From NCBI GenBank assembly GCA_032718475.1, contig JAUCBJ010007629.1, positions 1 to 64,000 on the forward strand: a stretch of 64,000 nucleotides of DNA, written 5' to 3'. The notes beneath the pieces are model-generated. The model was not told the DNA's origin. It did not search any database and saw nothing but the letters and a program-made list of their open reading frames with translations. Numbering within the stretch: the stretch's first letter is position 1; the number at the start of each line of letters is the position of its first letter. Origin of the DNA: Nemertoderma westbladi. Lineage: Eukaryota > Animalia > Xenacoelomorpha. The translations under genes and the position numbers were made by a program. This document shows positions 2,521 through 55,717 of the stretch, piece by piece.

Positions 2521-5500
2521 TTACAGTAGGATATTGCAGGTATTGTTACCGTCTCTTCCGATAGTAGGAATAGGGTCTCGTTCGAATTCACGGTGTAATA
2601 AGATGTGATGTTTCGCGCCGCACTTTGCACACTTTACGTCGGAGTAACAGGTTCGCCGTTGGTGTCCTGGTCTGAGGCAATTATAGCATAACCGCTTATC
2701 CCACATGACTTCATGTCTGTCTACCAGGGATTTCAATAGGAATTCAGCACATGCACTCAAACGGTGGGTCCCGTCGCACAGCGCACAGTTTGGTTTGATG
2801 TTACTCACTTTACCTTGGGTAACGTTATGCACTCTCGTTCTTTCTTCGGGCTTTCTTCCATACCTTCTGTTAGGAGACTGAGGAGGAGTCTTGGCAACCT
2901 GTTCTCTCCTATCGTTGGTTCGAGCCTTGTATTTACTTACGTCTTTTGAGGTTTTGTTAACATAGTAAAATCTGTCAGTGTCTTTTCCGCTGTCCTCTTC
3001 CTGGGAAGCTTGGCTTTCGCCGTCGTCAGTGTAACACACTGGTGTTACTCTTCTCCTAGAAACGGGTTTCTCACTTACCTTATTTTCCGATGTTTTCTCT
3101 CTGGACTGCTTTATGAGTTGTAGTTTTACTTCACCATCTAAGAAGGACATGAGATCAGCCATGGTAGGGCCTCGTCGTTGCTGCTCATTCATATACAACA
3201 CTTTCTTGTCCCAGCGTGTACATACTCCACCCTTTGGTAAAGTAGAGAGTACGGCTCCAATAACCATGGAACTCTGATATTCATGAGACTTACCTAACCA
3301 GTCCAATTGTCTACAGATCTCCTGAATCTCATCGGAAAACTCTATAATCCCGCTACTAAGGAAGTTTCGGGGGGCTACTAATTTTGCATACAAATACTTA
3401 GCTATGTTATCCTTATTACCATACCTGGTGTTTAATGTATCCCAAACTTGTCTTAATCCATCTGGATGTCCAATAAACTTTAACACCATTAACTTGGGAG
3501 GTCCTTCCAAGCACTTGATGAGGAATCTAAGTTTCTCTCCGTTAGATAGTACAGAGTTCTGTATGCTATCTTTGTAATATTCATTGAAAGGTAACCATTT
3601 TATCTCATCTCCATTGAATTTGACGATCTCTCCCACTTTGACCGCTTGGCGGGCTTCTGTTCTAGCCATCTGACGCGTAAAGCTTTCTTGGGCCATCGTG
3701 TTATTTAATATCGAATTATCGGTATATAAATTTCTCGGATTATTATCAGGTCTATAGGGAATATCATTAACAACAGGTTTATAATCACCCTTAATAGGGT
3801 TTGCTATAGGAGTTTCTACTTCACTAGCAGTATAGATGCGTGTAGGCTCCACACCTTGCGCATGTAGTACTTCAGACCTAACAGGTTGACACAATGTTAC
3901 TGGGGGTATTGGTATACCCTTTTGTATATTGACTAATTTGTCGCGTTCTAGCGCGATGCTTTGCTGCACTTCTTGCAATTCTACCCTACTTTCCCTTACT
4001 GTTCCCTTAAGTTGGTTGACAGTCTCCTGCATCTGTCCGAGCAGGAGATTCATCCCCCGCCGTCCCTCCTCTACCCACTCAACCGCCGAAGCGGGAGTCG
4101 CCAACATTGTAGCGGGCTGACGCGGGACGACGGGAGACAAATCCTTGATTTCTCTCTCAGCGTCCAGGACAGGGATTTTCTCATGGACTGTTCTACCGGG
4201 TACAGGCAGTGTAGTACTGTGTAAAGGGAATTTAGAGTTAAGCTCTGGAAGTACAGGGGTCTCTAGCACAGGAGTGGCTTCGGGAACGACAGGCCTAATT
4301 ATTTCAGGCTCATCGACTATCGTAGGGAGTCTTTTGACCTTAATAATTTGGTCTGTGGGTTCTGTACTACCTAAGTCTGTGCTAGCTAGTTGTCTTCTAA
4401 CAGCTGGGGGCAAATCAGGCAATTTGTGACGGTGAGATGTTTTTCTACGCCTGCTTAGACGAGATCTATTTCCTCCGCCTTCAGGATCGGTGGTCTGGCC
4501 TTCCTCCGATGATGTGTATCCCTGGCGTTTGGGAGTAGATCGACTCATCATCTGCATTTGACTAGCAGTTAATTGCTTATTTATGTTGTCTTGCGTCTCT
4601 TGCAGATTTTCCAACTCCAGTTGGGTAGTCTCCTCAGACGCTCTCCGTTCTGCTTCTGCCACTGCCCTTGCCTCTGCTACTGCTGCTGCCTTTCGGTCCT
4701 CTATCCGTCTTTTCTTTACTTGTTCTTCCTGGACTCTAGTGAGGCGGAGTTTTTCATCAAATTTAGCTTGGTTTGCAGCTAACATTTCCGCATCGATTGA
4801 GTCCAACACAAGCTTGGCTCCTTCACTATTGGGGCGAAGTCCAGCCAGTCGTCTCCTCAACTCTTCATCACCTAAGAAGCGTTGATAGTCTGACAGATAG
4901 ATGTCGATGGCGTCTCTCGTTCACGGTCTCTCTGCTGTCACTTCACTTTCCACTTGAGAAAAGGTGGCATCGGTTGATTCTTCATAGGTTGGTCGCTCTG
5001 CCAGCTGGGATTTCCACTGGGCCGTTTCTTGTACTTTGAGACCTACCCGCTGGAACCAAGTCTTGACAGCAACTTGCAGCGACGTGTCCTGTCTTCTTTT
5101 GGAAGTTTCCTCAAAGGCTGATAGGATTAGCCTAATGCGTAGGGTTCTTTCGCGTACTTGATAAAGCAGCTCTTCCTGCTCTTGAGGTCCTTTGGGTTGT
5201 CGAAACAGTTGTTCTTCTAATCGCTCTAAGGAGCCGAAGAATCCCTGCACATATCCTGCTGCCGACCTCTTCCAAACAGCTGGATCCATCGTATCTTTAG
5301 TCACTCCCATCCTGTGTATGTCTTCCCAGGTAGCTTCAGATAAGTCTAACGGGAATCCGGGTCCGGAAAAGTTCCATTGCGACTCGACAATAGATATCAA
5401 TTCTTCCCTGGCGTATCCCGCATAACTATCTTGGGTCGCTCGCTTACTTCTCGCCCAATCGACTTGGTGTTCCTCCACCGCGATCAATATCGTAGTTAGT

Positions 5501-5868
5501 ACTGCGGCAGGAAGAGTGAGAAGGGGATCCGAATAGGCTGTATCCGCCATCTTCACTCTGCATTCGGGGGTCAGCTCTACAGTATCCGAACTACTGGAGC
5601 TGTCGGGTCGCTGGGAACGAGTTTCTGGACTAGGATGTTGCTGCTGTTGGACAACTGCTTCTTGGTTCCGTTTGACCTGGGCCCGAGTGCCGATGATAGA
5701 CCTACGGTGTTGGATTAGCCTAGGGTCTGATACTACTACTGGAGGGATGACCTTTCTTTCAGTAGGAGGTGAGCTGAACCCCTTTCTTAATCGCTCCACA
5801 CTCCTATCTGTGTCACAGATGGTTGTATCGATTAGACTGTCTGACAGGTTTTGCTCTGTGTCAGACAT
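2521..5868 (-). pseudogene. gag: Bel/Pao-type Gag (about 1115 codons) with one in-frame TGA at 4921-4923; no pol follows
   Basis: ORFs 4921-5868 and 2521-4860 share a frame (ERP*TRDAIDIY...). Capsid-region motif KFNGDEIKWLPF..EKLRFLIKCLEG and Bel/Pao triple Zn knuckle CALCDGTH..C / CYNCLRPGH..C / CAKCGAKHHILLH. Confidence 0.85.
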
Positions 5869-5947
5869 GTTTAGCTATACAGTTGAATGCTTACTGCTAT
5901 AGTTACAGTTAAAGCAAGTCTAGTAATTCAGTATGACCGTTGGCCTA

Positions 5948-6220
5948 GTACCGGTAATTTATTACAGTATATTAGAATACCGGTATACACTTATAATATA
6001 TATAAGTATTGTAAACTAGGTTTGTCTCAGAATACCGGTATATAATTTTAACACAAATATATATAAATATATAATAGGCCTATCGTGAATACCGGTATAC
6101 AGCCTACACTTATAGTATATAAGTATAATTCTGGACTAGAATTAATTACAGAATACCGGTATAATTTCAGCCTAAATTTATAGAAATAAAGATAATAGGC
6201 CTATCGTAAATACCGGTATA
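5948..6220. repeat. Degenerate tandem repeat, period about 58 bp, carrying the palindrome TACCGGTA
   Basis: AATACCGGTATA near 5977, 6031, 6088, 6152 and 6209, plus a weaker copy near 5949. Confidence 0.7.
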
Positions 6221-6342
6221 TCAATTATTTAAATAATTGAATTTCTGAATTTTAAAGGTTACTTAGTTACTTTAACTTACTTTATTACCGTTATTTAAGC
6301 AGTAGTCCAACTGATATTGAGACCTAATTGTTGTATGCAGGC

Positions 6343-7971
6343 TGTTCGCGGTATTTCAACTTTCCATAACGCGAGTTGAATATTTTTGTATTTATTTAAA
6401 ATTGATTATTCCGATATTACTACTGGGTGCGGGACCATGGGTTTTGGGCACATTCAATAAACTGGGGGCGATTTATGGGCGAACTTTGGGGCAACTTACA
6501 GGGTACGGGAATAATTTCATAGTTATAAGGGCCAGGGGGGATGGAAAATGCAAGCAGTATTCAGGTTAGCCTGAGTACTATTAGGCCCTGGCCAACTTCC
6601 TGCTGCCTGTAGGGGTGGATTTGGTAATGCGCCAGGCCTAAAGGACAAGGACTGCCCTTAGCGGTCCCTGGCCAACAGCAGCCATTACGAGACTGAAAAG
6701 AACTCGGACCGCTGACTGCTTGTGTCAGGGATTTGCGACGGGCACCGACGGCCCCTTAGTAGCCAAGCCGTTCTGGTTCTCGATGATCGAACCCCGGGGT
6801 TCGTGAGGGGTGGAGCGGACACGCGAACGGGTGGCCAACTAACGACTGCCCCCTGACCTAAGCCATACTGGTTCTCGATGACCGATCCCTTCGGGGTTCG
6901 TGAGGGGTGGGACGGACATGCGAAAGGGCTGGCCACAGGACGGGTTTGACGAGAACTGCCCTTAGCGGTCTCTGGTCAACGGCAGCTACTACGAGACTGA
7001 AAAGAACTCGGAACGCTGACTGCTTGTACTGGGATTTGCGACGGGAACCGACGACAGACCCCTTAGCCAAGCCGTACTGGTTCTCGATGATCGAACCCTT
7101 CGGGGTTCGTGAGGGGTGGAACGGACACGCGATGGGGTCGAAAGACAAAGGACTAGACTCGACTAGACTCTACTGGCCTACCGACTGTTCGGAGCAGTTT
7201 CTCGGCTGCCGAAGCGACTACGAGCCTGAAACGGACTCGGAAAGCCTAGGTGGTTGGGTTTCTGTGATGAACCGACGGACCCCTAGCCAAGCCGTTCTGG
7301 TTCTCGATGATCGAACCCTTCGGGGTTCGTGAGGGGTGGAACGGACACGCGAACGGGTCCACCGACACGACAGACTCCTAGCCAAACCGTACTGGTTCTC
7401 GATGACCGAACCCTTCGGGGTTCGAGAGGGGTGGTACGGATACGCGACAGAGTCTACCGACTGGACCGACCCTTAGCCAAGCCGTGCTGGTTCTCGATGA
7501 TCGTTCCCTTCGGGGTTCGTGAGGGGTGGAACGGACACGCGACAGGGTCGACCGACACCGACACTACGGCACTAAGACTGGGACCGAGGGAAAATCTGGG
7601 GAACATTAGGTAGGCTAAAATTCTGAGCGAACAGTGGGTTATTAAATAATATACCGTAGGGATTTATATTATCGTGTATAATTATTGTGAATATTTGGTG
7701 TATATTGATTTGGGGAAGCCCAAAATTATTCTTAATCAGGTTTCAATGATGTTGAACAGGTTTCAATGACGTTGAACAGGTTTCAACTATAGGAAGTTAC
7801 ATTAAAGAGTATATCCAACTAATGCAGCTTTTTATCAACCGCAAACTTGCATCTCAGAAAATATTCCCTCCCCACAATCAATATCCGGTGACTGGCCGGG
7901 GCTCGGTGGTCTGTTAAAGTCACGTCTCCAGCATCGGCGTTTTCCCCCCTGGTGTAGGGATAACGGCAACA
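6343..7971 (+). repeat. 5' LTR of element A
   Basis: TGTTCGCGG...GGCAACA; direct repeat of 19278-20906 with only about 4 substitutions seen by eye. Confidence 0.97.
6750..7550 (+). ncRNA. Array of six ~84-nt structured hairpins with kink-turn motif and cUUCGg cap (5' LTR)
   Basis: Copies near 6750, 6848, 7057, 7277, 7372, 7467; core CTC-GAT-GA-T-CGAACCC-TTCG-GGGTTCG-T-GA-GGG; outer stems vary compensatorily. The repeat is certain, RNA function is inferred. Confidence 0.7.
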
Positions 7972-8075
7972 AAATTAAGAATAATTCACGTGGTTAATTT
8001 TGACAGGGTGTCAAAATTAAGAATAATTCATGCGGTTAATTTTGACAGGGTGTCAAAATTAAGGATAATTACGGT
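7970..8075 (+). repeat. 42-bp tandem repeat (about 2.5 copies) with palindrome TTAATTTTGACA-GGG-TGTCAAAATTAA, at the PBS position
   Basis: CAAAATTAAG at 7970, 8012 and 8054; no TGG-initiated tRNA complement directly after the LTR. Confidence 0.8.
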
Positions 8076-8264: not shown

Positions 8265-8456
8265 ATGGAAGTATCGATCACACCCATTGATATAATTCAA
8301 GTTGAGCCAGGAATCTGGCACGTCGAAGTTGAGGTACAAGGAACGAACGTTGGACGATTCAGGATTACTGTTCGGGTGGTCCAAGCTGAGTACAATACCT
8401 ACGAGGAACTGTTTTACGACATCGCGTATCTAGCCATCGACGAGGCGTTACAATGA
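8265..8456 (+). CDS. 63-aa upstream ORF overlapping the gag start through ATGA
   Basis: Stop TGA 8454-8456 overlaps gag ATG 8453-8455; protein-like beta-strand then helix pattern; no recognised homology. Confidence 0.4.
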   Translation: MEVSITPIDIIQVEPGIWHVEVEVQGTNVGRFRITVRVVQAEYNTYEELFYDIAYLAIDEALQ

Positions 8457-11400
8457 CAACAAATAACGTATCCGATACCGACGAGATGGATCACCACACA
8501 GACTCGGAAGCCGACGAGGTACCAAACGTCAAGAACATGACCCGTCGGTTAGGGGCTCTTAAAGGCGGAGTAACCCGAGCATATCAACGGATGGAGAAAC
8601 AACTCAAGGGAGTCAAAACCCCCCTCAATGAGGTACAAACTCAGCTTCAAAGTATCCGAAATATCCTACAGCGGTACGAAAGAATGATACAGGCGTACCA
8701 AGAGCTCATTCCCCCCACCGATCAGGAAAACTACCCCAAGTTGGAAGAACACGTTGTACATCTAGATGGGTTCCGCAAACAACACCGGAGGACCCTCAGC
8801 CTTGTGAGAGGCTATGAGGAACAGTATTACAAGAGGGCTGACGCGGAATCAGTACGATCCTCCAGCATCAGGACAGCAGTACATCGTAAGAGAACGGGGT
8901 CCGCTAGAAATCAGCACTCCAGCGCTAGGAGCGAGATATCCGGCTCGGCGCGCAGTTCTCAAGGGGCGCCGCCACTCCGAGACCAACTGCGAGAACGGAA
9001 GGCATTAGCCCTCAAAGCTCGGATGGAAGATGAGTATATTCAACTGCAAGCCGAGCAAGATGTATTAGCCGCCGAAACACAAAAGCGAGAGGCCGAACAA
9101 GCGGCCGAACGGCAGGCCGAACAACGCGAACAGGAGGCCGAACAACATAGACGAGAGGCCGAACGGCAGGCCGAACAACGTGAACAGGAGGCCGAACAAC
9201 ATAGACGAGAGGCCGAACGGCAGGCCGAACAACGTGAACGACAGGCCGAACAACATAGACGAGAGGCCGAACGGCAGGCCGAACAACATAGGCGAGAGGC
9301 CGAACAACAGGCCGAACAACGCAAACAGGAGGCCGAACAACATAGACGGGAGGACGAACGACAGGCCGAACAACGCAAACAGGAGGCCGAACAACGCGGA
9401 CGAGAGGCCGAACGAGAGATCGAACAACGTAAATGGGAAGCGGAAATGCGTAAACAACACGCCGAGGCCCAAGCAATTCTCATCCACAAAAAGAATGCGG
9501 ATATTGCAAAACTCGCAGAATACGAAGCCGCACTTATCGAACGAGATATTCAACTCTACGAGGACTGGGAAAGGGATATAGATCAGGAATATGAACCAAT
9601 TCCGGTACCGGAGTTAGAAAAGTCATTTACACCAACAGCGGCGAAACCTCCGAAACCCGAGATCCCGCCTACCAAACAGTCTACGCTATCGGCACAAGCT
9701 CCGGTGTTTCATCCCCCACCGGCTACGCTAAAGAATGAGGAACCCTATTTCCCATCCAATACCACGACAGCGAGTGTACCCAAGTACGAGCCTGAAAAGG
9801 ACTCGGAACGGGATGCCACTCCCCGATCAAACAACCCATTTACATCAACACCACAAACTCGCAGCCGCGTCATTATTAAAACTCCGCCTATTATTGATCC
9901 ATCAAGTATGGGAGTGAGTGCCAATAACTATAACCCTCCGAGTCACTCCAGTTCAGACGACGTCAGCATCATCCGGGCGTTGGAGAACCGCCTTGCCATG
10001 CCGAAGATGGAGATTCGCACCTTCGAAGGAGATCCCGTCGATTATCTCAGATTCAAGAAACGGTTTTTTGCGCAGATTGGATCAACGGACATAGCCGACG
10101 CACAGAAATTGGTATATTTATCGCAATACCTGGGTGACAAACCACGCAGAATTGTTGCATGTTTTGAAGGAGGTTCTCATGAGGCATACTATGACGCATG
10201 GAAAACTCTAGACAAAAGATACGGAAATACCGGAACTATAATTAATAAAACTCTAGAGAGACTGATACAGGACGCGGGATCACTAGGGGACCCACAGAAC
10301 ATACAGGAATTCTCCGACTCTATGAAAGATGCCTATTATACTCTGAAACCCTTAAATAAGGAGGACCAGGTGAACAACATTCTAAACCTCCGACAGATCG
10401 CCCGGAAGTTCCCCGGATGGCTGCAAAGTAAGTGGGCCTATAAATGCGTAGATCTCCGGCGCAGACATCCAGATCAAGATCCCAGCTTCCTCGAAATGTC
10501 GGCATTCCTGGACGATATCTCCGAAGCCATGAATGACTCAATGTTCTCGAAACAAAGTCTCGCCAAGTTGGACGCAATGGAGAGCAATTACCAGAGCAGG
10601 GCACCCACTCCAAACCCAAGATTCCGCCCTACTCCTGTGAGTGCGATGGTCATCAGTATGGCTGAGGACTCGGATGACGAGGATTACGAGGAACCGACCT
10701 TAGCAGAAGAATGGGCATGCTACCTAGCGAATTGGGCACCCGAAAGGGAAGGCACCACAGCCTCCCCTATATGTCTCTTCTGTGGGGAGAAACACAAAGT
10801 GGAATTCTGCAGAAAGTTTCAGTTCGCCGAACTCGTCCCATGCTTCGAGGCGATAATGAAACACCGAGGATGCTTCCGGTGTCTTGGAACAGGTCACTAT
10901 GTTCGGGAGTGCGACCAAAGATCATGCTGTGCTGTCTGTAACGACCAACGCCATCACACGCTCCTCCACATCCCCGCGAACTTCGATTTTACTACCCTCC
11001 CCTTTCGGATCGAAGCCAGGCGACGAGGAGAAACAAACCACGTCTTCAAAGGAACCCGGACAACCCAACGGAGAGAAACCAACCCGTTTAAAATCTACAC
11101 CGATACACCACAAGTAACCAATATTTCGGCCACGATTAATCTTATAAATCGCCGCTACATGGTCTTCGCAAAGGTGATCCCAGTAAGGATCCAAGGAGTC
11201 GGCAAATCTTTGACGACACTCGCGTTCCTCGATAACGGGTCCGACGGAACCATCATCGACCGGGATTTCCTCGAGCAACTCGGCCTAGAATATGAACCTT
11301 GTAAACGGCCCATACAAACCATCACCGATAACAAAGAAGTAGAGTCCGGGGAGGTGCAACTCCAGATGGAAGGAGTGATGAAGGGCTACGAAACGGCTAA

Positions 11401-11632
11401 GTTAACCATCAAGAACGCCTTGGTACACACAGACCTCCGGGTGCGGTTCCGACAATCAGCCGAGTACGCCCCCCTCATACAATTGGACCGAGACGATGTA
11501 GACCTGAGGTGTCCGCAGTTGGATGTGAACCGTATCACCCTACTGATCGGACTTGATACACCGGAACTACACATCCCCACCGGAGATATCGCTCGATCTA
11601 TAAACCAGGATGATGGATTTTATGCTGAATGA
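8453..11632 (+). CDS. gag: Bel/Pao Gag-protease part of the polyprotein
   Basis: PKMEIRTFEGDPVDY capsid region, triple Zn knuckle (CLFCGEKH, CFRCLGTGH, CAVCNDQRHHTLLH), aspartic protease LDNGS. Ends at an in-frame TGA inside the conserved A-x-x-T-x-x-GW motif (YAE*TIMGW). Confidence 0.93.
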   Translation: MTTNNVSDTDEMDHHTDSEADEVPNVKNMTRRLGALKGGVTRAYQRMEKQLKGVKTPLNEVQTQLQSIRNILQRYERMIQAYQELIPPTDQENYPKLEEHVVHLDGFRKQHRRTLSLVRGYEEQYYKRADAESVRSSSIRTAVHRKRTGSARNQHSSARSEISGSARSSQGAPPLRDQLRERKALALKARMEDEYIQLQAEQDVLAAETQKREAEQAAERQAEQREQEAEQHRREAERQAEQREQEAEQHRREAERQAEQRERQAEQHRREAERQAEQHRREAEQQAEQRKQEAEQHRREDERQAEQRKQEAEQRGREAEREIEQRKWEAEMRKQHAEAQAILIHKKNADIAKLAEYEAALIERDIQLYEDWERDIDQEYEPIPVPELEKSFTPTAAKPPKPEIPPTKQSTLSAQAPVFHPPPATLKNEEPYFPSNTTTASVPKYEPEKDSERDATPRSNNPFTSTPQTRSRVIIKTPPIIDPSSMGVSANNYNPPSHSSSDDVSIIRALENRLAMPKMEIRTFEGDPVDYLRFKKRFFAQIGSTDIADAQKLVYLSQYLGDKPRRIVACFEGGSHEAYYDAWKTLDKRYGNTGTIINKTLERLIQDAGSLGDPQNIQEFSDSMKDAYYTLKPLNKEDQVNNILNLRQIARKFPGWLQSKWAYKCVDLRRRHPDQDPSFLEMSAFLDDISEAMNDSMFSKQSLAKLDAMESNYQSRAPTPNPRFRPTPVSAMVISMAEDSDDEDYEEPTLAEEWACYLANWAPEREGTTASPICLFCGEKHKVEFCRKFQFAELVPCFEAIMKHRGCFRCLGTGHYVRECDQRSCCAVCNDQRHHTLLHIPANFDFTTLPFRIEARRRGETNHVFKGTRTTQRRETNPFKIYTDTPQVTNISATINLINRRYMVFAKVIPVRIQGVGKSLTTLAFLDNGSDGTIIDRDFLEQLGLEYEPCKRPIQTITDNKEVESGEVQLQMEGVMKGYETAKLTIKNALVHTDLRVRFRQSAEYAPLIQLDRDDVDLRCPQLDVNRITLLIGLDTPELHIPTGDIARSINQDDGFYAE
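9088..9440 (+). repeat. Coding tandem repeat (EAERQAEQ/EAEQHRR coiled coil) in Gag
   Basis: Many GAGGCCGAAC/CAGGCCGAAC units; explains the overlapping low-complexity ORFs. Confidence 0.9.
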
Positions 11633-11638
11633 ACAATA

Positions 11639-14600
11639 ATGGGATGGACACTCTGCGGCATTAAGGAGGAAACTACGGACACCTATACCTACCTTCCTAA
11701 ATGTCAGATTAAAGAGAATGTAACCTCTGTGGGTTATTGCTCAGCTTCGGATCTTGACGAGGATTTGTTCCTGGAAACCGAGAAAACCCAACGAGAGATG
11801 ACGAAATATTTTAATTTGGAGACCCAGGAGTTCGCGGAAAAGGACGAAAACCCATCCGAAGAGGACCAATATTGTATGGACGTTCTCGACCAGGCCACGT
11901 TTAAAGACGGACATTGGTGTTCACATGTTATGGAAGGACCCAAACAAACCAATGGCAAACAACGCCAGCATGGCACTTAGGCGACTTAAAGGGATTCTAC
12001 GCCGGCTGAATGACCAACCCGAGATAAAGGAGAAGTATAACACCGTAATCCAAGGATATCTCGATGATGGATTAGCAGAAATGGTACCACGGAACGAACT
12101 GCAAGGTGGTAAAAGAACATATTATCTCCCGACCCACTATGTAGTAGAAGCCCGCAAAGGCGGGAAAATCCGAGTGGTAAATGATGCTGCCGCTATGTAC
12201 CAGGGCGAATCCCTAAACAGTCAACTTTATACGGGACCCAACATATATAGCACACTCATCGGCGTATTGATCAGGTTCAGGGAAAACCGGGTAGCATTCA
12301 CCTGTGACATCAAGGCCATGTTTCATCAAGTTCGTACATTACCAAGAGACTCGGACTGTCTACGTATCCTATGGACGGATAAAACGCTTACTCAACAGGA
12401 GATTAGCCAACTCACGATAAAGGACGTAGACATAATGCGTATGGTCGTCAGGATCTTCGGCGCTAAGGACTCGCCGGTAGCATGCAGTGACATGCTAAAG
12501 AGGACGGCAACCATGTGCGAAAACGAGTTCCCTCCAACCGTCATAGAAACCATTCGACGATGCTTCTACGTGGACGACGGATGCGCCGGCGCGGATAATG
12601 TAGATGAGGCGTATCAGCTAGCAATGGGGATGGTAGAATGTCTAAAGAAAGGAGGGTTTCCACTCGTGAAGTTCAGATCCCACGACAAAACACTTATGGA
12701 AAAGTTTCCGGAGGACATCCGGCTGGAAAATAACAAGATGTATTCGGAGGATGTGGAACATCGTGTACTCGGGATTGAATGGGACATAGAATCAGATGAA
12801 TTCATCTTCAAATATAAACCCCTACCCAAGCCTATGACAAAAAGGGGATGTTTGTCGATAAAAAGTGCAATCTTCGACCCACTAAATTTCATATCTCCGG
12901 TAACCTTGGCCGGAATGAACCTGATTAAGGAAATGTGGATAGAAGGACTGGGATGGGACAAAGAGCTTCCCCCATACCTTAGCGTCAAATGGAGAAAATG
13001 GACGGAGCAGCTCGAACACCTACATCTTATGCGGATACCTAGACCGTTCTTCCTCGATAAACTGCCCACCGATATCTTCCAGCTCCACACCTTTTCGGAT
13101 GCTTCAAATACCGGAATCGGCGTAGTAACCTTCTTACGGAGACTAAGTAGCGATGGAAACGGCGATACAAGCTTCTTATTCTCCAAAGCAAAGACAGTAT
13201 CCGGGGAATTCGTAGCAACGATTCCGAGACTCGAGCTACAAGCTGCAGTTTGGGCAGTAAGACAGAATCGCATGGCCATGCGGAACCTACGGATCCCCAT
13301 AGAATCTCAACACTTCTGGGTAGATTCGAGTATAGTTCTCTATTATCTCCACTCTCCATCACGGCGTCACACCACGTTTGTTGCAAACCGAGCCACAGAG
13401 ATTAAACAGTGTACCGGCCGAGAACAGTGGCATCACGTGAACGGGAAGGAAAACCCAGCGGACTTATCAAGCCGAGGCGCCACCCCAAAACAACTCGGTA
13501 AAAGTAAACTCTGGTTTACAGGCCCGGAATTCCTACGGCAGCCACAGTTAACATGGAGTACCCGATTCGACCCCGAACTCGATAGTGGAAAATACTCCGA
13601 GGACGATAAAGAGATCCGTAAAATCCATCGAAGCAACGCGGTGGAAATTTATAGTTGCCTGACTGAGCCTGCAAAGGACTCGGGCAGGCACTATAACGTC
13701 GCGACGATCACTCAACTAGCGGCGTCTTTACATCGGTTGATCGAGCGAACTTCATCCATGAGACGGCTCGTCCACCACGTTATAACCCTTCGTAACTTCC
13801 TACGGTGGAAAAACAGCAAACCGATAGTTCAACGGAATATACAAGAACTTATTATCGCGGAGAAGTGTATTGTTAGATATGTCCAGAAAGAAAGTTTCCC
13901 CGATGAATGGGAACAACTTAGTGCGGGCAAAACATTGAAACCGGACAGCCCAGTCTACCAACTGAGACCAATGATAGGAGAGGACGGACTGATCCGACTG
14001 AATACCCGGATGGCAAACGCCCCGGTCGAATATGAGGTTAAATACCCGGCGCTTCTGCCCGGAACGTCGACACTAGCTAAGCTATTAATTCTACAATGTC
14101 ACGAGGACAACCACCACGCAGGACAGAATTGGATTATAGCTAATATAAGACAAAGATATTGGATCACCCACATCCAGCCACTGATCCGGAAAGTGTTGAA
14201 ACGTTGCTTCACCTGCAGACGTTACCTAGCGCCACCAATCACCCAAAAGATGGCCGACTTACCAGCCACCCGTCTACAAGCGGATTCCCAACCATTCTAC
14301 GTCACCGGAGTGGACTGTTTCGGACCGTTCACGGTTATTGAACGACGATCCAACATCAAATGCTGGGGAGCCATCTTCACCTGCCTAAGGTCTAGGGCAA
14401 TTTACTTAGATATCGTGGTAAATCTGACACAACACGCATTCATCAAAGCTCTGCGTCGGTTCGTGGCGAACAACGGGACATGCTGCCACATGTATTCCGA
14501 TAATGGTACAAACTTTGTGGGAGGAGAAAGAGAACTTAGAGAGGCGATCGAAGGATGGTTTACCGATAACACTGCATCCCAAGCCTGGAAGGAACACCAG

Positions 14601-15272
14601 ATACAGTGGCACTTCCAGACCCCCTTAGCACCCCATACGAGCGGGGTATGGGAGAAACTGATCGACCTAGTGAAACGATCCATGCGCGTCGCTCTAGGCG
14701 ATACCCGGGTAACCCATGACACCCTCCGCACAACATTCTGCGAGATCACGGCTACCCTGAACAACCGACCCATTGTTCCTATCCGCGACGACCCCACAGA
14801 CCTGGAACCCCTCACTCCTAACCACTTACTGGGGAGACCTAAAACCCACCTCCTCCCGGAAACCATGTTCCCGGATCCCAACGAGATCGCGAAACATACA
14901 AACTGGAAAAAGGCCCAAGCGTTAGCAGCGCATTGGTGGAGAATTTGGACCCAGGAGTACCTCATAACCCTCCGGACCAGGAGGAAATGGAACAACACCT
15001 ACCGGAATGTCGCAGTTGGTGACATGGTACTAGTTAAAGAAGATCTCAAAGACCGCATTCACTGGCCTGTGGCGCGGGTCGTGACCATACACCCAAGCAA
15101 AGACGGACTTGCAAGGACTGTGACGATACGAACGGCAAAGGGCCACTACCAACGCCCTATCCAGAGGCTGTGCCTTCTCGAAGGCAATGATAGCGGTGAC
15201 TCTACGAGAGGTGATAAGATCCCTACTCAAGATCCTGCTGTGGACATTGGTGACAATTACAAACCCGTGTAA
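11639..15272 (+). CDS. pol: Bel/Pao Pol (RT, RNase H, integrase), frameshifted near 11920
   Basis: RT DIKAMFHQ and FYVDD; RNase H FSDAS, IPRLEL, NPADLSSRG; integrase H..HH..CFTC, GVDCFGP, SDNGTNF, WEKL. ORF 11639-11980 is in the gag frame, ORF 11925-15272 in a shifted frame. Confidence 0.93.
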
Positions 15273-16521: not shown

Positions 16522-17847
16522 ATGGACCTAAATCGCCAAATTATCGGCGAATTACGTAACACGTTAGATCTACTGGAATATTCGCAACCCGGATCCCCTG
16601 ACTTTGATACAAATTGGAGCACCCTGCTAAATGAGAACGTGCGAGTCATGAAATTCACCGGGCGAGAGGGACCGGATTCTAAGAATCTACGAGCCCTCCG
16701 GTTAGCCGATGCTAGTACGAGACTGAAAAGAACTCGGAACGCAAAGGCAACCGGAGGGGACGATTCGTCGTTTTGGGAAACGTTCCGGCAGAGCGTCTAC
16801 AGATCCCGATGTTTGATCTACGACAACGAGGGAAACGCGACGCCCACATCGAAAGCGATTACGTTGGCGAGATGTCAAAGTTTCGTCGACGACAAGAGTA
16901 CGTACCTCGCCCACTGGGGAAACCTGTCGGAGTGTACGGCGACGCTTCGAGAGGAACGCATATCGATTATCCAGAACCGCGATGACTACCAGGAAAAGTA
17001 CGGGGCGAAAGAATATGGTCGATCCTTAGTCGTCGTCCTCGGAACCCTGGACGGTTTGGTACTGGTGTGCCGAATATTCCCGACACCCAGACAGGAAGTG
17101 CAGGCAGCCGGAGCGATCTGGTTGCTGCCTCCGGAAATCCAAAAGATCCTCTTCGACTTCGACGTCATTAAAATCGGGTCGGATATCAAGGCGGACGTCC
17201 GGAACGACTACGCGAACGCTCCTACAGGAAGAAACCGACGAGACGACCTCAACGCCCTTAGCCATTGCATCGACACTCAAACGTTACTAGCCTGGTTACG
17301 ATTCGCCGAGTTCATGCGAGGATTCCAAGAGGTGAGACCGACGAAATCCGGGATCGGCTACCTCGCTGTGCTAAACGGCGGTATCGACTTCAAACCCCAG
17401 AAATTCCGGGACTATAATAAAATATACGGTGGATACCCGGGATTGGAAATAAAGAGCGAGCGAGAGGGTCGATGGAAGGACGTTGATCGGAAGTGGACGA
17501 TACACCAAAGATGGGAGAATCCCGATCGACGGAACTATGTTTACGTCGTTATGGAATGCTACACCGTCGCTAAGTTTATCTGTAAAACTCTCGATAACCT
17601 TATTACGGCGGTCCCCCTTTCCTTCGTCGACTACGACTGGAACGAGGTTATAAACCACACGTTTAAAGCGGTCGAGAACATTACACCGGGAGAATCGAAA
17701 ACACCCGCCGTTATCGATTCCTGGGACGAGAGCGGACCTTACGACATCCCTACGATTACCGAACTTCTCGGTGCGGAGGAGCCTCTGATCTCTTCGGAAG
17801 GGGAAGAGACGAGGGTGTTCTACTCTCCACCCCGAAGCGACAACTAG
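16522..17847 (+). CDS. Accessory protein N-terminal part: DEDDy/DnaQ-like 3'-5' exonuclease-like domain (WRN/EXD/Mut-7 type)
   Basis: ExoI-like LIYDNEG; VLGTLDGLVLVCRI; LPPEIQKILFDFDVIKIGSDIKAD (ExoII-like); CIDTQTL; SGIGYL; YVVMEC (ExoIII-like with E). Motif recognition only. Confidence 0.65.
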   Translation: MDLNRQIIGELRNTLDLLEYSQPGSPDFDTNWSTLLNENVRVMKFTGREGPDSKNLRALRLADASTRLKRTRNAKATGGDDSSFWETFRQSVYRSRCLIYDNEGNATPTSKAITLARCQSFVDDKSTYLAHWGNLSECTATLREERISIIQNRDDYQEKYGAKEYGRSLVVVLGTLDGLVLVCRIFPTPRQEVQAAGAIWLLPPEIQKILFDFDVIKIGSDIKADVRNDYANAPTGRNRRDDLNALSHCIDTQTLLAWLRFAEFMRGFQEVRPTKSGIGYLAVLNGGIDFKPQKFRDYNKIYGGYPGLEIKSEREGRWKDVDRKWTIHQRWENPDRRNYVYVVMECYTVAKFICKTLDNLITAVPLSFVDYDWNEVINHTFKAVENITPGESKTPAVIDSWDESGPYDIPTITELLGAEEPLISSEGEETRVFYSPPRSDN

Positions 17848-17900
17848 AGCCGGAGGCCGCGTATGGACCGGCCGCCAAACGGGTTGCCTCGACCGAACCG

Positions 17901-19112
17901 ATGAAGAGAGCAGGCGTTTACACTCCACGCGGCTCCGGTAGCCCCGCGAGGGAGGTGGCTACTACAGCTGCATTGAGCGACTTCGGCGACATATGCCAAC
18001 GGTTATCCCCGTATCCTTTCCCGGGTGGCGAAGATTGGTCGTCGGAGATTCCGAGTACCAGCCACCAACGGACCCGCGCAGCGATACTGATCGAGGAGGG
18101 CCCCAGCGACGCGCCGACCCCCGACGATCTCCTCGGTATCCCTCCGTCGAAAACCCCGGCACCCCTTCGCCGACCAGCGGTGGCTACTGCACCCGCCGTT
18201 CCTCAGGACCCTATGCGACTAACCCGTTGGTACGCCGAGCAAACTGAATGGATCCACCGCCAGAAACGGTCATCCGAGTTGAGACCAGCGGGACACAAAG
18301 AGGGTTATCGGAGCGAGAACATACTACGCAAAAGCCTAGCATTCCGCGGGCTACCGACCACCGAGAATATTCCGAAGAGCGACCGATGACTCGAATACTA
18401 CGTCGGCGTCCCGATTCCAATATTCCCCGGTCGAGAAACGCAGTTGGAGGTATGCGACGACTGCGGCTCGGAGCAGTGCCCACGCGGCAGAAGGAATCGG
18501 GTTACCGATTCTTGCCTCCAGCTCCTCGGGGTACTCTATTGCCCATACTGCGCGATATCGGGCCACGACGTTTCGGTCTGTCCGATCCTTTATAACCTAT
18601 GCACCACGTGCGGTTTCCGTGGACATTCCGCTAGCCCCCGCTGCTATATCAAATGTCCTACCAAAGACGTAACCGCTATGGGCAATATGGTCATGTTTGA
18701 GACATACACAAACAGCCACTTAAAGACCAAGTTTCGGAGAAACGCTCGGAATATCGCGCAGGAGATGGCGTGCGGATATTTCTCCTTCCCGGAACGCCTC
18801 CACACGTCGGCCACGCTACCTTTCCATTACGTGGATCTGCTACTGAGCGCTGGATTATTCGGCCCATTCGAAGTCATTAGACGATTATACTCGTATAAAG
18901 AGGAGTTCGGTGACGGAGAATGGTTCCTAGAGGCACGCAACTCCGAGTTGGAAAGACGAACCGACATGATCCCGATGCCTTCGAAAGGAAGAGCCGCCAG
19001 GAGACAAGCCGAAGCGTTACTCACAATGGATTTTGACGCTCCTCTACCAGCCATAGCGATCGATGAGAGTCGACGGGCGAAGAGACGAAAGGCGTACCAG
19101 AAAAAGAAATAG
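17901..19112 (+). pseudogene. Accessory protein C-terminal part: Pro-rich linker and tandem CCHC Zn knuckles, in-frame TGA at 18387-18389
   Basis: 17901-18389 and 18444-19112 share a frame; GRETQLEVCDDCG..C, CPYCAISGH..VCPILYNLCTTCGFRGH..C; colinear homolog in element C. Confidence 0.7.
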
Positions 19113-19277
19113 TGGATTGGGATATTCCAGGAACATTTATCGAACATTTATTTTTATACAAACTCTAGGCCAAATTAATTAAAAACTATGCAATATTAAA
19201 TTTGGGTTTTTTATATTGGGAATGACCTACGCAAACTCAATCGACCGACAGACTTCACGAAGGTCATTGGGGGGGAC

Positions 19278-20906
19278 TGTTCGCGGTATTTCAACTTTCC
19301 ATAACGCGAGTTGAATATTTTTGTATTTATTTAAAATTGATTATTCCGATATTACTACTGGGTGCGGGACCATGGGTTTTGGGCACATTCAATAAACTGG
19401 GGGCGATTTATGGGCGAACTTTGGGGCAACTTACAGGGTACGGGAATAATTTCATAGTTATAAGGGCCAGGGGGGATGGAAAATGCAAGCAGTATTCAGG
19501 TTAGCCTGAGTACTATTAGGCCCTGGCCAACTTCCTGCTGCCTGTAGGGGTGGATTTGGTAATGCGCCAGGCCTAAAGGACAAGGACTGCCCTTAGCGGT
19601 CCCTGGCCAACAGCAGCCATTACGAGACTGAAAAGAACTCGGACCGCTGACTGCTTGTGTCAGGGATTTGCGACGGGCACCGACGGCCCCTTAGTAGCCA
19701 AGCCGTTCTGGTTCTCGATGATCGAACCCCGGGGTTCGTGAGGGGTGGAGCGGACACGCGAACGGGTGGCCAACTAACGACTGCCCCCTGACCTAAGCCG
19801 TACTGGTTCTCGATGACCGATCCCTTCGGGGTTCGTGAGGGGTGGGACGGACATGCGAAAGGGCTGGCCACAGGACGGGTTTGACGAGAACTGCCCTTAG
19901 CGGTCTCTGGTCAACGGCAGCTACTACGAGACTGAAAAGAACTCGGAACGCTGACTGCTTGTACTGGGATTTGCGACGGGAACCGACGACAGACCCCTTA
20001 GCCAAGCCGTACTGGTTCTCGATGATCGAACCCTTCGGGGTTCGTGAGGGGTGGAAAGGACACGCGATGGGGTCGAAAGACAAAGGACTAGACTCGACTA
20101 GACTCTACTGGCCTACCGACTGTTCGGAGCAGTTTCTCGGCTGCCGAAGCGACTACGAGCCTGAAACGGACTCGGAAAGCCTAGGTGGTTGGGTTTCTGT
20201 GATGAACCGCCGGACCCCTAGCCAAGCCGTTCTGGTTCTCGATGATCGAACCCTTCGGGGTTCGTGAGGGGTGGAACGGACACGCGAACGGGTCCACCGA
20301 CACGACAGACTCCTAGCCAAGCCGTACTGGTTCTCGATGACCGAACCCTTCGGGGTTCGAGAGGGGTGGTACGGATACGCGACAGAGTCTACCGACTGGA
20401 CCGACCCTTAGCCAAGCCGTGCTGGTTCTCGATGATCGTTCCCTTCGGGGTTCGTGAGGGGTGGAACGGACACGCGACAGGGTCGACCGACACCGACACT
20501 ACGGCACTAAGACTGGGACCGAGGGAAAATCTGGGGAACATTAGGTAGGCTAAAATTCTGAGCGAACAGTGGGTTATTAAATAATATACCGTAGGGATTT
20601 ATATTATCGTGTATAATTATTGTGAATATTTGGTGTATATTGATTTGGGGAAGCCCAAAATTATTCTTAATCAGGTTTCAATGATGTTGAACAGGTTTCA
20701 ATGACGTTGAACAGGTTTCAACTATAGGAAGTTACATTAAAGAGTATATCCAACTAATGCAGCTTTTTATCAACCGCAAACTTGCATCTCAGAAAATATT
20801 CCCTCCCCACAATCAATATCCGGTGACTGGCCGGGGCTCGGTGGTCTGTTAAAGTCACGTCTCCAGCATCGGCGTTTTCCCCCCTGGTGTAGGGATAACG
20901 GCAACA
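19278..20906 (+). repeat. 3' LTR of element A (hairpin array at about 19685-20485)
   Basis: Direct repeat of 6343-7971, preceded by G-run PPT and followed by TSD CAGGC. Confidence 0.97.
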
Positions 20907-23556
20907 CAGGCCTACTATTTATAAATCGTTTGAGTTGATTTATAATATATATATACCCGTTTAAAATGGGTTTTGTCAATATTTGAAATAAATGTTATTA
21001 TTTCTGGGGGGAGTCACTACACAGAAGCTGTGCGCTCTCAGTGAAGTGCTACTTATTGGACACTAAAACAGATAATTCTAATTTACCTAAGTTACTTAAT
21101 ACTACAAATTACGTACGATACGGGTGAGATTAATTCTCTAATTAAAACACAACAAAATATTACGTACGAAATTTTAGGGTAATTTTACAGGAAGTCTACA
21201 AACCAGCCTAACAAAGGGTTAGAATTCTGGTTATTACAACGGACAGGGTACTACGGTATTTGAAAATAATAAGTAGTAGTAAATATGTTGCGCTGTCCAG
21301 ATAGGAAAAATACCACCGTCTGACGACCTATAGCCGTATCGCTATAGGTACTACGTTATGTATCACAGAGTGTTCCTACCTGGAAGTTAATTACCGCGGA
21401 CTACCAGATCCAACGTGCCTATTAACCACTTTACAACACAATACACTGCCTACACACTAATTACTTTTGGAAAGCACTGTACACCAAACCCTAAATTAGG
21501 TACAAGTACTTATTAAAAACAGATAACTAGCAGTTAAATATACTTGAACAGTTAAAAGAACCACGGCATCTGCTGGAGTGACCGGAGCACAAAGTTACCA
21601 GTCTTTACCTACGCCAAGCAGCCCGTGTAGTACCGGGGTTAATTTAACTATAACGGTATGTGTAACAAGCACAATTACTGTAGGAATAAACTTGGGGACA
21701 TGAATGTTGCGAATAATCGCATAAACTCTGAATAATAAATATTACGCTACCCGTACAGAATACTCAAACAAAATACAAACCAAACGCTGGCAGACTACCA
21801 TCAAGCCTAAATAAACTACAGTATGTGCAGATTCCGAAATGGTTAGTTAGTATGCGTTCTAACACAGTAGTACGACTTATTCTTTAGGAGGGGGTTGACC
21901 TTACAACTCAAGATGCCCCAACTTACTAACTGGCACTTTATCGGACAGACTCTACACACGCCGCAATCTCTCCAGACCCAACAACAGCCAGACAACAATC
22001 CAGCCTACAATTATCTGAACAATCTGAGCAGACTTACACGTCTTCTGCTCAATATTAACTTACATGTAAATAAAACCGACAGAAATAAGTAAAATCTCAA
22101 TAAAAAACCAGGGCGGCCGTTCCCTGATTAAGTACTAAGACCTACCGGTGTACAATAATCAAAATCGAATAATACTAATGTACTTATACTGGAAGTACCG
22201 GTTAGGACAGTTGGGCCTACAGACCTACACCAGTACCGATTCTGGCAGTTGGGCCTACGGACCTACAGCAGTACCGGTTCAGGTTTACCGGTCGACCGGT
22301 ACTTTCAACTTTATTGCTTACTGCAATAAAGAAGATAACTGTTATTGTACGCGCTTTTGAAGAGCTTTAGCAGTTTAACCTGCCAAAATTTATATGTCTT
22401 TTGGTTTATAAATAGACTTTAACATATGACAAGTATTTAATACCAATAAACACAACATTAGCCGAAGCCAGCCTAGTGCGCGTCCATTCACCCGCTGGAT
22501 ATACCCGGGAGACTGGATTCGGAGGGCTTAGATTTTATTGCAGTATAACCTTACTGTATTATTCGATTGATCGTTAATAAATAATTTCTGACTAATATTA
22601 TTCACTTTCGGGAAATATTAACAGTTCCTTTAGGACGTGGCGCTCTATCTAGGTAAACAGAGAAATGACTTATACTAAACACAACGGTAAGACGGTAAGG
22701 CTTATGATTCACGTATGAGGCGCATTCTTTAGGAAATGCTTAGTTATCAGCCACAATCATGCACACTACCGGTACCGCACAATACTGCACACTAATCTGC
22801 CGACCGTCAATGAATTTTATCATACATAAAGAGAACAGCAATTGACTCATGTAGTGCCTATCAAATAGCATTAAATTCACTACAAACCACGATAATATAA
22901 GTCGCAATCGCTATATGTAACCTGTCTCTCTAACCTGTAGTGTATCAAGAAAATTGGGAAATTTGGGTTATTTATTGATGTTCTCCAAGTAATAATATTC
23001 AACCAACTGATACAAATAATGACAACAGTAAATAGCATTAAGACGGTAGGTTAAGATATGATATGTGTAACACTGATAATGCAGCACTGATACGCTGATT
23101 GAACTGGACTGATAACAGTTATACGTTCTATAATCTAAGCCTACTAATGTTTCTTCTAAAGTCTGAAAACAATTGACTCCAGAGCCGGTGTTCTTGGCCT
23201 AGAAGCAACAACACAACAGTAACAAGAAAACTATAAGACTGAACACGCCTAGTACCATGTAGAATGTCTCCACGTCTAAGGTAAAAATCGCTCTGATTGG
23301 CTGTTAAGCTGAACAAAGAACCATGTGTCCAACGGCCGTTTCCATGCCAGCAACCAGCTGTTGGATGTTGTAATCTGAATCATCAAGGCTACACTGTGCT
23401 AGAGGATTTGACGCATTGCGGGTTTTGTGTCTTGCCATGTCCGCCAAAGCACACATATAGAAAAACAACTTTTATGTCCGTTAAAACACCCACACGGTAC
23501 TTTGCGGGCAAGGGGACTGATTATATCCGCAAAAGCTTTTACAATAATAATAATAA

Positions 23557-42349: not shown

Positions 42350-43434
42350 TTTTAAATTATAGAGGGCCAAATATTTCAGAAATTGGTTTTTTTAAGCGGA
42401 TTCAATTCCGCTTCACTACCCACCACAAAATGGGATAGTGGCATTTTCAGCAATATGTTGGAGATACGAGATTAGCAATATGAATCTCGTATCACAACCA
42501 ACATTTTTTTTTTGGGGGGGGGGGGGGGGGGGCAACACAAGCCCCGAAGCCACACACAAAGGAGGGTTAGAGGTCAAACCACCTCGGAGGGGACACAGCT
42601 AGTAGAGGCTAGCAGCAGGGGGGAATCACTCCCAGAGAGTGCAAGGGCGAGAAGTAGGGTATTAGCCAATAAGGGCAAAGGAGAGCATCCACTAGGTAGC
42701 AGGCCAAGGTAGCGTAGGAGGTGAAGCAATATTGGTATATCAATCATATATTACCTCCCGCTACCGGTTTGTGATTCAGTTTAGTTAGCTAACCAGTTTC
42801 AGTGCAGACCGGTAATCAGTTGTTTTACCGTCACCGTCAACAAAATTGGCTGTATTTTAATCTATCACCAGTACCAAGCATTATTGTCATCCGCTGTCAT
42901 TCTGCCCTCATCATTATCTGTGCTATCACTATTATATTCGATCTGCCGACGTAGACAACACCGGACTCTCATCGCTTTTCCTCCAACGGCCTCGGCCAAG
43001 CAATCACTGGCACCATCCCGAGCTAGAACGGTGACGCGTACGAAACACTAACCCGGTCGGGATCTCTGATCCCGTCACAGTAAAACAACTGCCAACTGCT
43101 ATCGAACTGTGACTGCCTAAGAGACAGTAAAGAGAGATGAGCTGGAACAGGAGAACCCCGAGTATCAGAGGGAGAGAGGACGCCGCCGCGGACCCCGGAC
43201 GACACCAACCAAACGATCCGTGAGGCCGCGACGCGACGGTATCGAGCCTGCAACGCCGGATTCGCCGACGAGGGACGATCCGGTGGCCCAGGCGGAGGGT
43301 GACCGTCAACCACGAGCGGGAGACGAGTCGAGGCATGACGGCGGTCGGAGTACTGAAGTCGCCGCAGGCCGAGGGCGACGGATGGCCCACCGGAACGGCG
43401 ACGGTGGGGCCGCCGGTACAGCGCCGAACCAGGA

Positions 43435-47737: not shown

Positions 47738-47764
47738 TCCGGTGGCAATTCTCACACCATTCGG

Positions 47765-50700: not shown

Positions 50701-50791
50701 AGTGCGGATAGGGGGCAAGATAGGAGCAAAGGACAGAAAGACCTACAGGAGGGCTGTAGGAAAGTGCTGCCTGTTAGAAGGGGCACCTTAG
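47765..50791 (+). pseudogene. pol: Element B pol (RT, RNase H, internally deleted integrase)
   Basis: CDIEGMFNQ, FYVDD, FSDAS, PKLEL, NPADLLSRG, GVDMFGP; SDNG/WE part of the integrase missing; WRLARVV..DG.VRSV tail. Confidence 0.88.
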
Positions 50792-51050
50792 AGTTTAGTC
50801 GTCCAAATGTTGGACTGAGGGGGGTGGGAATGAGGGCGAGACGCCCTTCCCACACAAAATATAAAAAAAATAATAAAATAATAAAAATAATAAAATTAAC
50901 AAGTGAGAAAGCAGAAAGTTAGAAAGTGATAGTAGTAGATAGTACGTAGCACTAAGTAATAGTTAGTAATGTAATAGTTAAATAATTTAATAGTAAAAGT
51001 TAGCAGAAGTTAGTAGTAGTTAGAAAGTTAGTAAGAAGTTAGAAAGTTAG

Positions 51051-51320
51051 TTAGAAGTATAGGGAGTGTGGTATAGAGACATACCACGGGAGTAAGCGGG
51101 TACATAGTACCGTTAGAGTTAGAAGTATAGGGAGTGTGGTATAGAGACATACCACGGGAGTAAGAGGGTACATAGTACTGTTAGAGTTAGAAGTATAGGG
51201 AGTGTGGTATAGAGACATACCACGGGAGTAAGAGGGGACATAGTACCATTAGAGTTATAAGTATAGGGAGTGTGGTATAGAGACATACCATGGGAGTAGG
51301 AGGATACATAGTACGTTGGA
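51051..51320 (+). repeat. 68-bp tandem repeat, 4 copies, downstream of element B pol
   Basis: Units at 51051, 51119, 51187, 51255, each with hairpin (G)TGGTAT-AGAGAC-ATACCA(C). Confidence 0.9.
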
Positions 51321-55665: not shown

Positions 55666-55717
55666 AGTACTCTGCGTTGATACCACTGCTTAAGCAGTGG
55701 TATCAACGCAGAGTACT
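55666..55717. other. Head-to-head amplification adapter dimer (SMART/ultra-low-input primer), technical artefact
   Basis: AGTACTCTGCGTTGATACCACTGCTT followed by AAGCAGTGGTATCAACGCAGAGTACT, a perfect 52-bp palindrome of the known primer. Confidence 0.97.

Follow-up and report, generated by a model that had tools for sequence, protein, structure and literature searches.

An array of hairpins with a predicted kink-turn in the long terminal repeats of a BEL/Pao retrotransposon

Six paralogous hairpin units of about 85 nt, named c1 to c6, were identified in each long terminal repeat (LTR) of a retrotransposon, giving 12 copies in the window (the whole stretch of DNA analysed, 64,000 nucleotides). 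The two halves of these hairpins have co-evolved, and their pairing relies on G-U pairs of the + strand. Judged from sequence, the units are a selected array of RNA hairpins, and the kink-turn (k-turn) predicted in them is credible. The invariant internal loop may be a k-turn whose folding depends on protein and which would be bound by a host protein of the L7Ae family, Snu13 being the first candidate, with a multivalent RNP built on the RNA of the element; a probability of roughly 0.4 was given to this reading.

The carrier element and its hairpin array

The carrier was a complete, young BEL/Pao LTR retrotransposon with a length of 14.6 kb. The LTR pair, the target-site duplication, the polypurine tract and the Pfam matches of gag and pol together identified it as complete and recently inserted, and its parts were located as follows.

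6343-7971, + strand: 5' LTR, TG...CA, 1629 bp (self-comparison at offset 12935)
19278-20906, + strand: 3' LTR (self-comparison of the window)
6338-6342 (left) and 20907-20911 (right), strand not given: target-site duplication CAGGC, 5 bp (flank sequences)
19269-19276: polypurine tract GGGGGGGA, G-rich, before the 3' LTR
8453-11632, + strand: ORF1, gag (DUF1759) with two CCHC knuckles and an aspartyl protease (Pfam matches)
11925-15272, + strand: ORF2, pol (Peptidase_A17/Pao, integrase zinc-binding domain, DUF5641)
16522-17847, + strand: accessory ORF3, no known family
17667-19112, + strand: accessory ORF4/ORF5 frame, no known family, two CCHC knuckles (in ORF5), in-frame TGA at 18387

The self-match at offset 12935 was unbroken from 6342 to 7971 and contained 4 mismatches (6865, 7122, 7275 and 7386). 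All the features that define BEL/Pao were present, namely a TG..CA LTR pair, a target duplication, a DUF1759 gag and a pol with Peptidase_A17 and integrase, and the pol shared only 38% identity with the nearest database protein. The accessory ORFs occupied a region of about 4 kb. ORF3, ORF4, ORF5 and the N-terminal half of ORF1 gave no Pfam match at E<=1, and for ORF3 no homologues were found, only weak Atlas neighbours at 0.87. The ORFs of the element revealed neither an L7Ae-like domain nor anything else connecting it to a binding protein. Selenocysteine recoding of the TGA at 18387 by SECIS-like hairpins was considered and rejected, as the SECIS features were absent and no redox motif surrounded the codon. 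The family was very abundant in sequencing runs of one organism label, and 6290 contigs of the richest run matched a 2-kb stretch. The insertion-free site, with the flanks joined by one CAGGC, was recognised from loose ends at 6337 in runs X1, X3, X4 and X6.

The six units lay where the sequence-only reading had placed them in the LTR, and the twins of all six were found at +12935 in the 3' LTR. Three copies of a second hairpin type of about 95 nt (unit B) were found by alignment within the same array.

6649-6746, + strand: unit B1, before c1, -45.5 kcal/mol, z -4.3
6750-6836, + strand, twin 19685-19771: unit c1, -39.5 kcal/mol, z -1.6, 88.1 bits
6847-6931, + strand, twin 19782-19866: unit c2, weakest fold, z +1.2, 87.8 bits
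6959-7045, + strand: unit B2, in the long linker before c3
7056-7140, + strand, twin 19991-20075: unit c3, consensus core, -40.8 kcal/mol, z -3.6
7181-7278, + strand: unit B3, in the long linker before c4
7277-7360, + strand, twin 20212-20295: unit c4, consensus core, best fold, -44.1 kcal/mol, z -3.7, 110.8 bits
7372-7455, + strand, twin 20307-20390: unit c5, z -3.4, three compensated pairs
7467-7550, + strand, twin 20402-20485: unit c6, z -1.2, two U.U mismatches in the apical stem

A fuzzy search of the window with the core returned 12 matches, all on the + strand and none on the - strand. When a covariance model (R1) of the six units was run over the 64-kb window with filters off, only these 12 copies reached E<=1e-22, and the next match had E=0.43. 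The mean identity among the aligned units was 86%, and the cUUCGg loop was present in 5/6 units. The core had been written earlier as a (T)CTC/GGG(G) stem, a GAU bulge, tandem G.A pairs, a U-U, a 7-bp stem and a UUCG loop; this wording was exact for c3 and c4 (2/6), and c1, c2, c5 and c6 deviated from it. In c1, the loop was shortened to CCGG with loss of the loop UU (CCCCGGGG), and the outer helix read GGCC-CC/GG-U-GGCC; c2 carried one U.U in the apical stem; and the changes of c2 and c5 beside the G.A pairs are given in the next section. The outer-helix sequences quoted for copies 3 to 6 were all recovered. The linkers measured 10-11 nt at c1-c2, c4-c5 and c5-c6, 124 nt at c2-c3 and 136 nt at c3-c4. 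Variable linkers of about 11-137 nt had been reported before. The long ones were not mere spacers, since they held the second hairpin type. Unit B carried no k-turn signature, and its + strand folded more stably than its - strand in all three copies.

The array covered LTR positions 408-1208 of 1629. The following elements, all recognised by eye on the + strand, lay downstream of it and form a predicted promoter/R region.

7640-7720, + strand: AT-rich, TATA-like stretch
7737-7796, + strand: 20-nt motif, three copies
7801-7806, + strand: ATTAAA

With the AT-rich stretch, the repeated motif and ATTAAA downstream, the array would fall into U3, and the genomic RNA would then carry it in its 3' UTR. 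Other layouts, with the array in U5 or within a long R, are allowed by an AATAAA at 6457 and by a TATAAG-like sequence near 6523. In other genomic copies, joints skipped 39-53 nt in the 7640-7806 region.

The internal loop and the predicted kink-turn

The internal loop was described on c4, which was matched in the signature scan at (7309, 7331).

7302-7311, + strand: bulged strand of c4, with C-helix UCUC 7302-7305, bulge GAU 7306-7308, G1b-A2b 7309-7310 and 3b U 7311
7330-7336, + strand: non-bulged strand of c4, with 3n U 7330, G2n-A1n 7331-7332 and C-helix GGGG 7333-7336
7312-7318/7323-7329, + strand: NC stem of c4, closed by the UUCG cap 7319-7322 (sequence)

The loop read C:G / G-A-U / G.A / A.G / U:U / C-G. 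According to PMC8191799, a standard k-turn has a bulge of 3 nt and, after it, G.A and A.G pairs in tandem, many k-turns have C:G at -1b:-1n, and any pair may occur at 3b:3n. The corresponding pattern CUC-GAU-GA / GA-GGG was present in 12/12 units, and the signature scan picked up the units of the array. The -1b:-1n pair was C:G, followed by U.G, C-G and U.G, and these pairs were invariant in all units. L3 was U in 6/6 units, and 3b:3n was U:U in 4/6 units, C:U in c2 (3b=C) and C:A in c5. In PMC5689011, box C/D k-turns are described with U:U at 3b:3n and as requiring protein to fold. For Snu13 and L7Ae, PMC1874613 names only the G.A/A.G pairs together with the neighbouring U.U as required, with U favoured in the pocket; the sequence preferences of Snu13/15.5K/L7Ae drawn from it, a protruding U and a U.U beside G.A, were both found in the units. 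The proposal that the core matches a box C/D-type k-turn was thus upheld at the level of sequence, all the sequence rules taken from PMC8191799 and PMC1874613 being present. Folding would be protein-driven, because 3b:3n is U:U and because a second register competes with the kinked one. In nearest-neighbour terms, which leave the tertiary contacts of a k-turn out of account, this non-kinked register with a 5-nt bulge was favoured over the k-turn register by 5.4 kcal/mol.

The same observations bear on the main rival to the k-turn reading, a structured RNA that works without a k-turn. In this alternative the sense-strand hairpins are selected and their likeness to a k-turn is fortuitous; the partner would be another one, such as the element's own CCHC nucleocapsid in packaging or dimerisation or host factors of export or localisation, or the stable structure alone would suffice. 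All the hairpin evidence of the main reading, presented in the next section, applies to it equally, and the stability of the non-kinked register speaks in its favour. The signature (C-helix >=3 bp, NC helix >=7 bp) was expected 1.05 times per dinucleotide-shuffled window, about once by chance, and outside the arrays the window held only as many signatures as the shuffles predict; a single ancestral signature followed by duplication therefore needs no special explanation. The three unit-B hairpins share the array and the + strand bias and lack the signature, and the two CCHC knuckles each in gag and in ORF5 could provide a partner. Against the alternative stands the pattern of variation. None of the 15 core columns (C-helix, bulge and G.A pairs) varied, as compared with 10 of the 53 central columns (p=0.024), so that the core was the only invariant block of the central hairpin with varying neighbours; 3b and 3n, which flank it directly, both varied. 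Moreover, the loop fits every preference of Snu13/L7Ae given in the excerpt of PMC1874613, including the U.U and a bulge ending in U. A fortuitous match was judged less likely than a host-bound k-turn, which was kept as the preferred reading.

Pairing of the hairpin halves on the sense strand

In the proposed structure, 92% of 174 cells paired, as compared with 35-52% when the 3' partners were slid by 1-3 columns. The fold z-scores of c3-c5 ranged from -3.4 to -3.7, and c1, c2 and c6 folded no better than shuffles (z -1.6, +1.2 and -1.2). In a half-swap test, each 5' half was folded with each 3' half of the six units, giving 720 assignments. The cognate assignment was the best of the 720, with a mean of -38.8 kcal/mol compared to -35.4 kcal/mol for non-cognate halves, and after trimming of the units to the hairpin it ranked 2/720 on the + strand and 1/720 on the - strand. 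Pairing has accordingly been maintained, because cognate halves would have no advantage if a paired ancestor had decayed neutrally.

Both sides had changed in 3/29 pairs (5 cells), and the covariation score was reached by 8/500 column shuffles. RNAalifold, which had been proposed as a check on the units, found only 2/28 pairs compensated, and its covariation term, +1, does not speak for covariation. The earlier statement that the outer helices covary was therefore borne out in part: compensated changes were present and cognate halves fitted each other, but RNAalifold lent it no support. Likewise, the reported change of CCGTTC/GAACGG to CCGTAC/GTACGG in c5 was present, but the same pair was left uncompensated in c3 (A.A), c6 (G.A) and c2 (A.G), the three units with uncompensated mismatches. 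Variation at c4 was also seen in contigs of three DNA runs with the same organism label, in which 60-83% of depth carried T in place of A at 7315 and 34-47% did so at 7314. As either T gives an uncompensated U.U, the perfectly paired apical stem is the minority genomic form. The contig comparison for c4 gave three variant places and did not list the known differences between units, so a place missing from it is not evidence of invariance.

The stems contained 25 G-U cells against 2 A-C cells, and folding of the + strand was favoured over that of the - strand by 2-12 kcal/mol in 5/6 units, with c2 level. These results confirmed that the G-U pairs favour the plus strand, as had been noted before, and because of them the hairpin makes sense as sense-strand RNA and not as DNA. 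This weighs on the possibility that the repeats act as DNA, either as enhancer or promoter repeats of U3 in which the palindromes are sites of dimeric transcription factors, or with no role in RNA at all. LTRs commonly carry tandem repeats upstream of the promoter, and the array does lie upstream of the AT-rich stretch. The number of units differed among genomic copies, whose joints skipped 433-617 nt or went back 93 nt, and the best-conserved blocks were single-strand sequence blocks rather than pairs. However, the 85-nt imperfect palindrome pairs properly only as + strand RNA, given the excess of G-U over A-C, and the outer helix still pairs as its sequence changes, which a protein site in DNA does not need. 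A role as DNA repeats was regarded as improbable.

A still smaller chance was assigned to the hairpins being small-RNA precursors, that is, a miRNA-like or hairpin-siRNA cluster in the LTR. Nine consecutive long sense hairpins with about 30 paired positions each do resemble polycistronic miRNA clusters, but a 4-nt UUCG loop and a large asymmetric internal loop are poor substrates for Drosha and Dicer, conservation was highest in the apical part and lowest in the basal arms, the reverse of the pattern in miRNA hairpins, and the units matched no Rfam miRNA family. Equally remote was a neutral array, in which a hairpin-shaped segment amplified by unequal recombination or template switching is now decaying: the shuffle-like folds of c1, c2 and c6, the U.U mismatches widespread in the genome and the two of the four LTR differences (6865 and 7122) that hit paired positions and break pairs would all suit it, yet cognate halves should not then fit better, only 1-2 of 720 permutations equalled them, and the 15 core columns were free of variation.

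Known RNAs, relatives and a possible role of the array

The search for known families gave no Rfam match at gathering score across the whole window, and at E<=10 over 6300-7900 only two weak matches, both outside the units. The Rfam check suggested by the sequence-only reading thus ended with no family matching the units, and known ribozymes, snoRNAs, SECIS elements and miRNAs were rejected because none of them was matched there. In particular, self-cleaving ribozymes (hammerhead, HDV-like, twister, pistol and hatchet) were found neither at gathering score in the window nor at E<=10 in 6300-7900. Two patterns anchored on the k-turn were scanned against sequence collections and hit 0 and then 6 loci in metagenome contigs, 4 in genome contigs and 1 in viral contigs; all 11 loci lacked the hairpin and were dismissed as chance matches. 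No relatives outside this genome family were found in Rfam and the three sequence collections. None of the sequencing runs recorded as RNA contained the sequence. In run X6, guessed to be RNA, an 886-nt assembled contig joined the polypurine tract to a single-unit LTR; as an assembled sequence, it shows neither transcription, transcript ends nor unit number.

Known kink-turns occur in ribosomes, snRNAs, snoRNAs, riboswitches and SECIS elements. In a box C/D snoRNA, the guide sequence lies between a box C (RUGAUGA) and a box D (CUGA) at the termini. The array unit has AUGAUCG and GUGA, an NC helix closed by a tetraloop and no guide, and no Rfam snoRNA matched at E<=10; a box C/D snoRNA was rejected for these reasons. 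The comparison with Snu13/L7Ae k-turns used the consensus strings of U4 and box C/D. The units resemble the k-turns of the U4 5' stem-loop, box C/D and U3 B/C, as these are described in excerpts of PMC8191799, PMC5689011 and PMC1874613, in the 3-nt bulge ending in U, the tandem G.A/A.G pairs, the U.U and the C:G closing the C-helix. A hairpin loop caps the NC helix, as it does in the U4 5' stem-loop. They differ from Snu13/L7Ae k-turns in standing six in a row in the LTR of a mobile element and in the long 7-bp NC stem capped by UUCG; they also lack a guide region and box C/D termini and match nothing in Rfam. SECIS elements, which are bound by SBP2 of the L7Ae family, are also similar, as hairpins likely in a 3' UTR with a 5' AUGA, a 3' GA and a U.U beside G.A. 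However, the unit has a UUCG loop and no AAR motif, its internal loop is a bulge rather than a large internal loop, and its helix II has C-G at position 4, where SBP2 prefers purine-pyrimidine according to an excerpt of PMC1874613. With no AAR, the wrong pair at position 4 of helix II and no Rfam SECIS match, identity with SECIS was also rejected.

Repeated structured RNA elements occur in the 3' regions of retroviruses and flaviviruses. The CTE of MPMV, the direct repeats (DR) of RSV, the RTE of IAP and the localisation stem-loops of the Drosophila I factor are structured cis RNA elements that recruit host factors. The array is like the CTE/DR-type elements in logic only, as a repeated structured cis element predicted for the 3' part of a retroelement genomic RNA; it has no sequence or motif similarity to them, and they bind NXF1 or other factors, not the L7Ae family. 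Tandem folded units or k-turn RNPs protect RNA from exonucleases in flaviviral xrRNAs and dumbbells and in snoRNP-capped lncRNAs (sno-lncRNA/SPA). By analogy, exonuclease protection may be one outcome of a multivalent k-turn RNP, although the folds of these RNAs differ from those of the array units. In a full-text literature search, judged from the search results alone, no paper turned up on a naturally occurring array of such consensus hairpins in a transposable element, nor on k-turns in the genomic RNA of a transposon or retrovirus.

Under the k-turn reading, the array would be transcribed within the genomic RNA, its most probable place being the 3' UTR derived from U3, and each hairpin would kink upon protein binding. 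The six sites, together with the three hairpins of the second type, would then assemble a multivalent RNP on the element's RNA and act post-transcriptionally, in a mode resembling that of retroviral CTE/DR elements. Stability against exonucleases, export or localisation are the possible outcomes, among which the sequence cannot decide. In its fullest form, the proposal would be that the retrotransposon hijacks the host's k-turn binder of snoRNPs and the spliceosome, of the Snu13/L7Ae type, through the six-fold array and coats the 3' end of its genomic RNA to protect or route it, which would make it the first natural k-turn platform borne by a mobile element; we consider this version rather doubtful. 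Because the family is high-copy and young, the claim of binding is directly testable. If the binding is real, a mobile element would be exploiting an ancient and abundant RNA-binding protein of its host, and the array would be a natural multivalent counterpart to engineered L7Ae/k-turn switches.

Second hairpin type and variation within the LTR array

The long linkers in the array of six kink-turn-like hairpin units (c1-c6) of each LTR, before c1, c3 and c4, were found to be occupied by a second type of hairpin, designated unit B, and the copies of the 5' LTR were located as follows.

6649-6746, 6959-7045 and 7181-7278, + strand: paralogous unit B hairpins (B1, B2 and B3) of about 95 nt, with twins in the 3' LTR at +12935

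The apical element of unit B, ACGAG-CUGAAA-CUCGGA, was kept among copies. In the long stems, B3 was strongly divergent from B1 and B2, and pairing was nonetheless retained. The folds were more stable on the + strand in all three hairpins.

Variation was also observed in the apical stem of c4, where the AA of the 5' arm (7314-7315) was mostly AT or TT genome-wide in the sequencing runs X1, X3 and X4. In these runs, the share of T in the read depth was 60-83% at position 7315 and 34-47% at position 7314. The TT form of this arm is complementary to GGAACG of the middle helix, and through this complementarity an alternative fold could be formed.

Other repeats and coding regions of the main element

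Two other repeats were identified in and beside the LTR. The 20-nt motif CAGGTTTCAATGAYGTTGAA was present in three copies at 7737-7796, and its copy number was variable among genomic copies, with joints that skip 39-53 nt. Directly 3' of the 5' LTR (region 7972-8075), 42 nt were repeated in about 2.5 copies, and 81-90 nt of this region were skipped in other genomic copies. A primer-binding site is expected directly after the 5' LTR; no obvious canonical TGG site was detected at 7972-8075.

In the gag part of ORF1 (gag-protease), imperfect tandem repeats on a 21-nt basis were found at 9046-9519, encoding the glutamate/glutamine/arginine-rich repeat EQREQEAEQHRREAERQA..., which is likely to form a coiled coil. 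ORF1 and ORF2 (pol) lie in different frames (11632-11925), the stop of ORF1 is about 170 nt from the beginning of the open pol frame, and no overlapping frameshift site was apparent between them. The region 17667-19112 constitutes a single reading frame with one in-frame TGA at 18387, the same stop codon as that of ORF1, and two nucleocapsid-like CCHC zinc knuckles are encoded downstream of it.

Other mobile elements and the insertion site

A third, older BEL/Pao-like element was present at 42393-52216, with short LTRs (169 nt, 93% identity) and fragmented gag/protease/RT/Pao ORFs. The features outside the main element were as follows.

44839-45040: tandem 57-nt units with small hairpins, in the leader of the third element
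50981-51314: tandem 68-nt units with small hairpins, immediately 5' of its 3' LTR
54456-56984, - strand: ORF with an endonuclease/exonuclease/phosphatase domain
2521-4860, - strand: second gag-like ORF (DUF1759)

Both tandem arrays of the third element folded weakly, with + strand z-scores between 0 and -1.9, and the k-turn signature was absent from their units. The ORF at 54456-56984 probably belongs to a LINE-type element. The insertion target of the main element is itself another repeat (2521-6342 and 20907 onward), and the flank at 6200-6337 was high-copy too in the read data.
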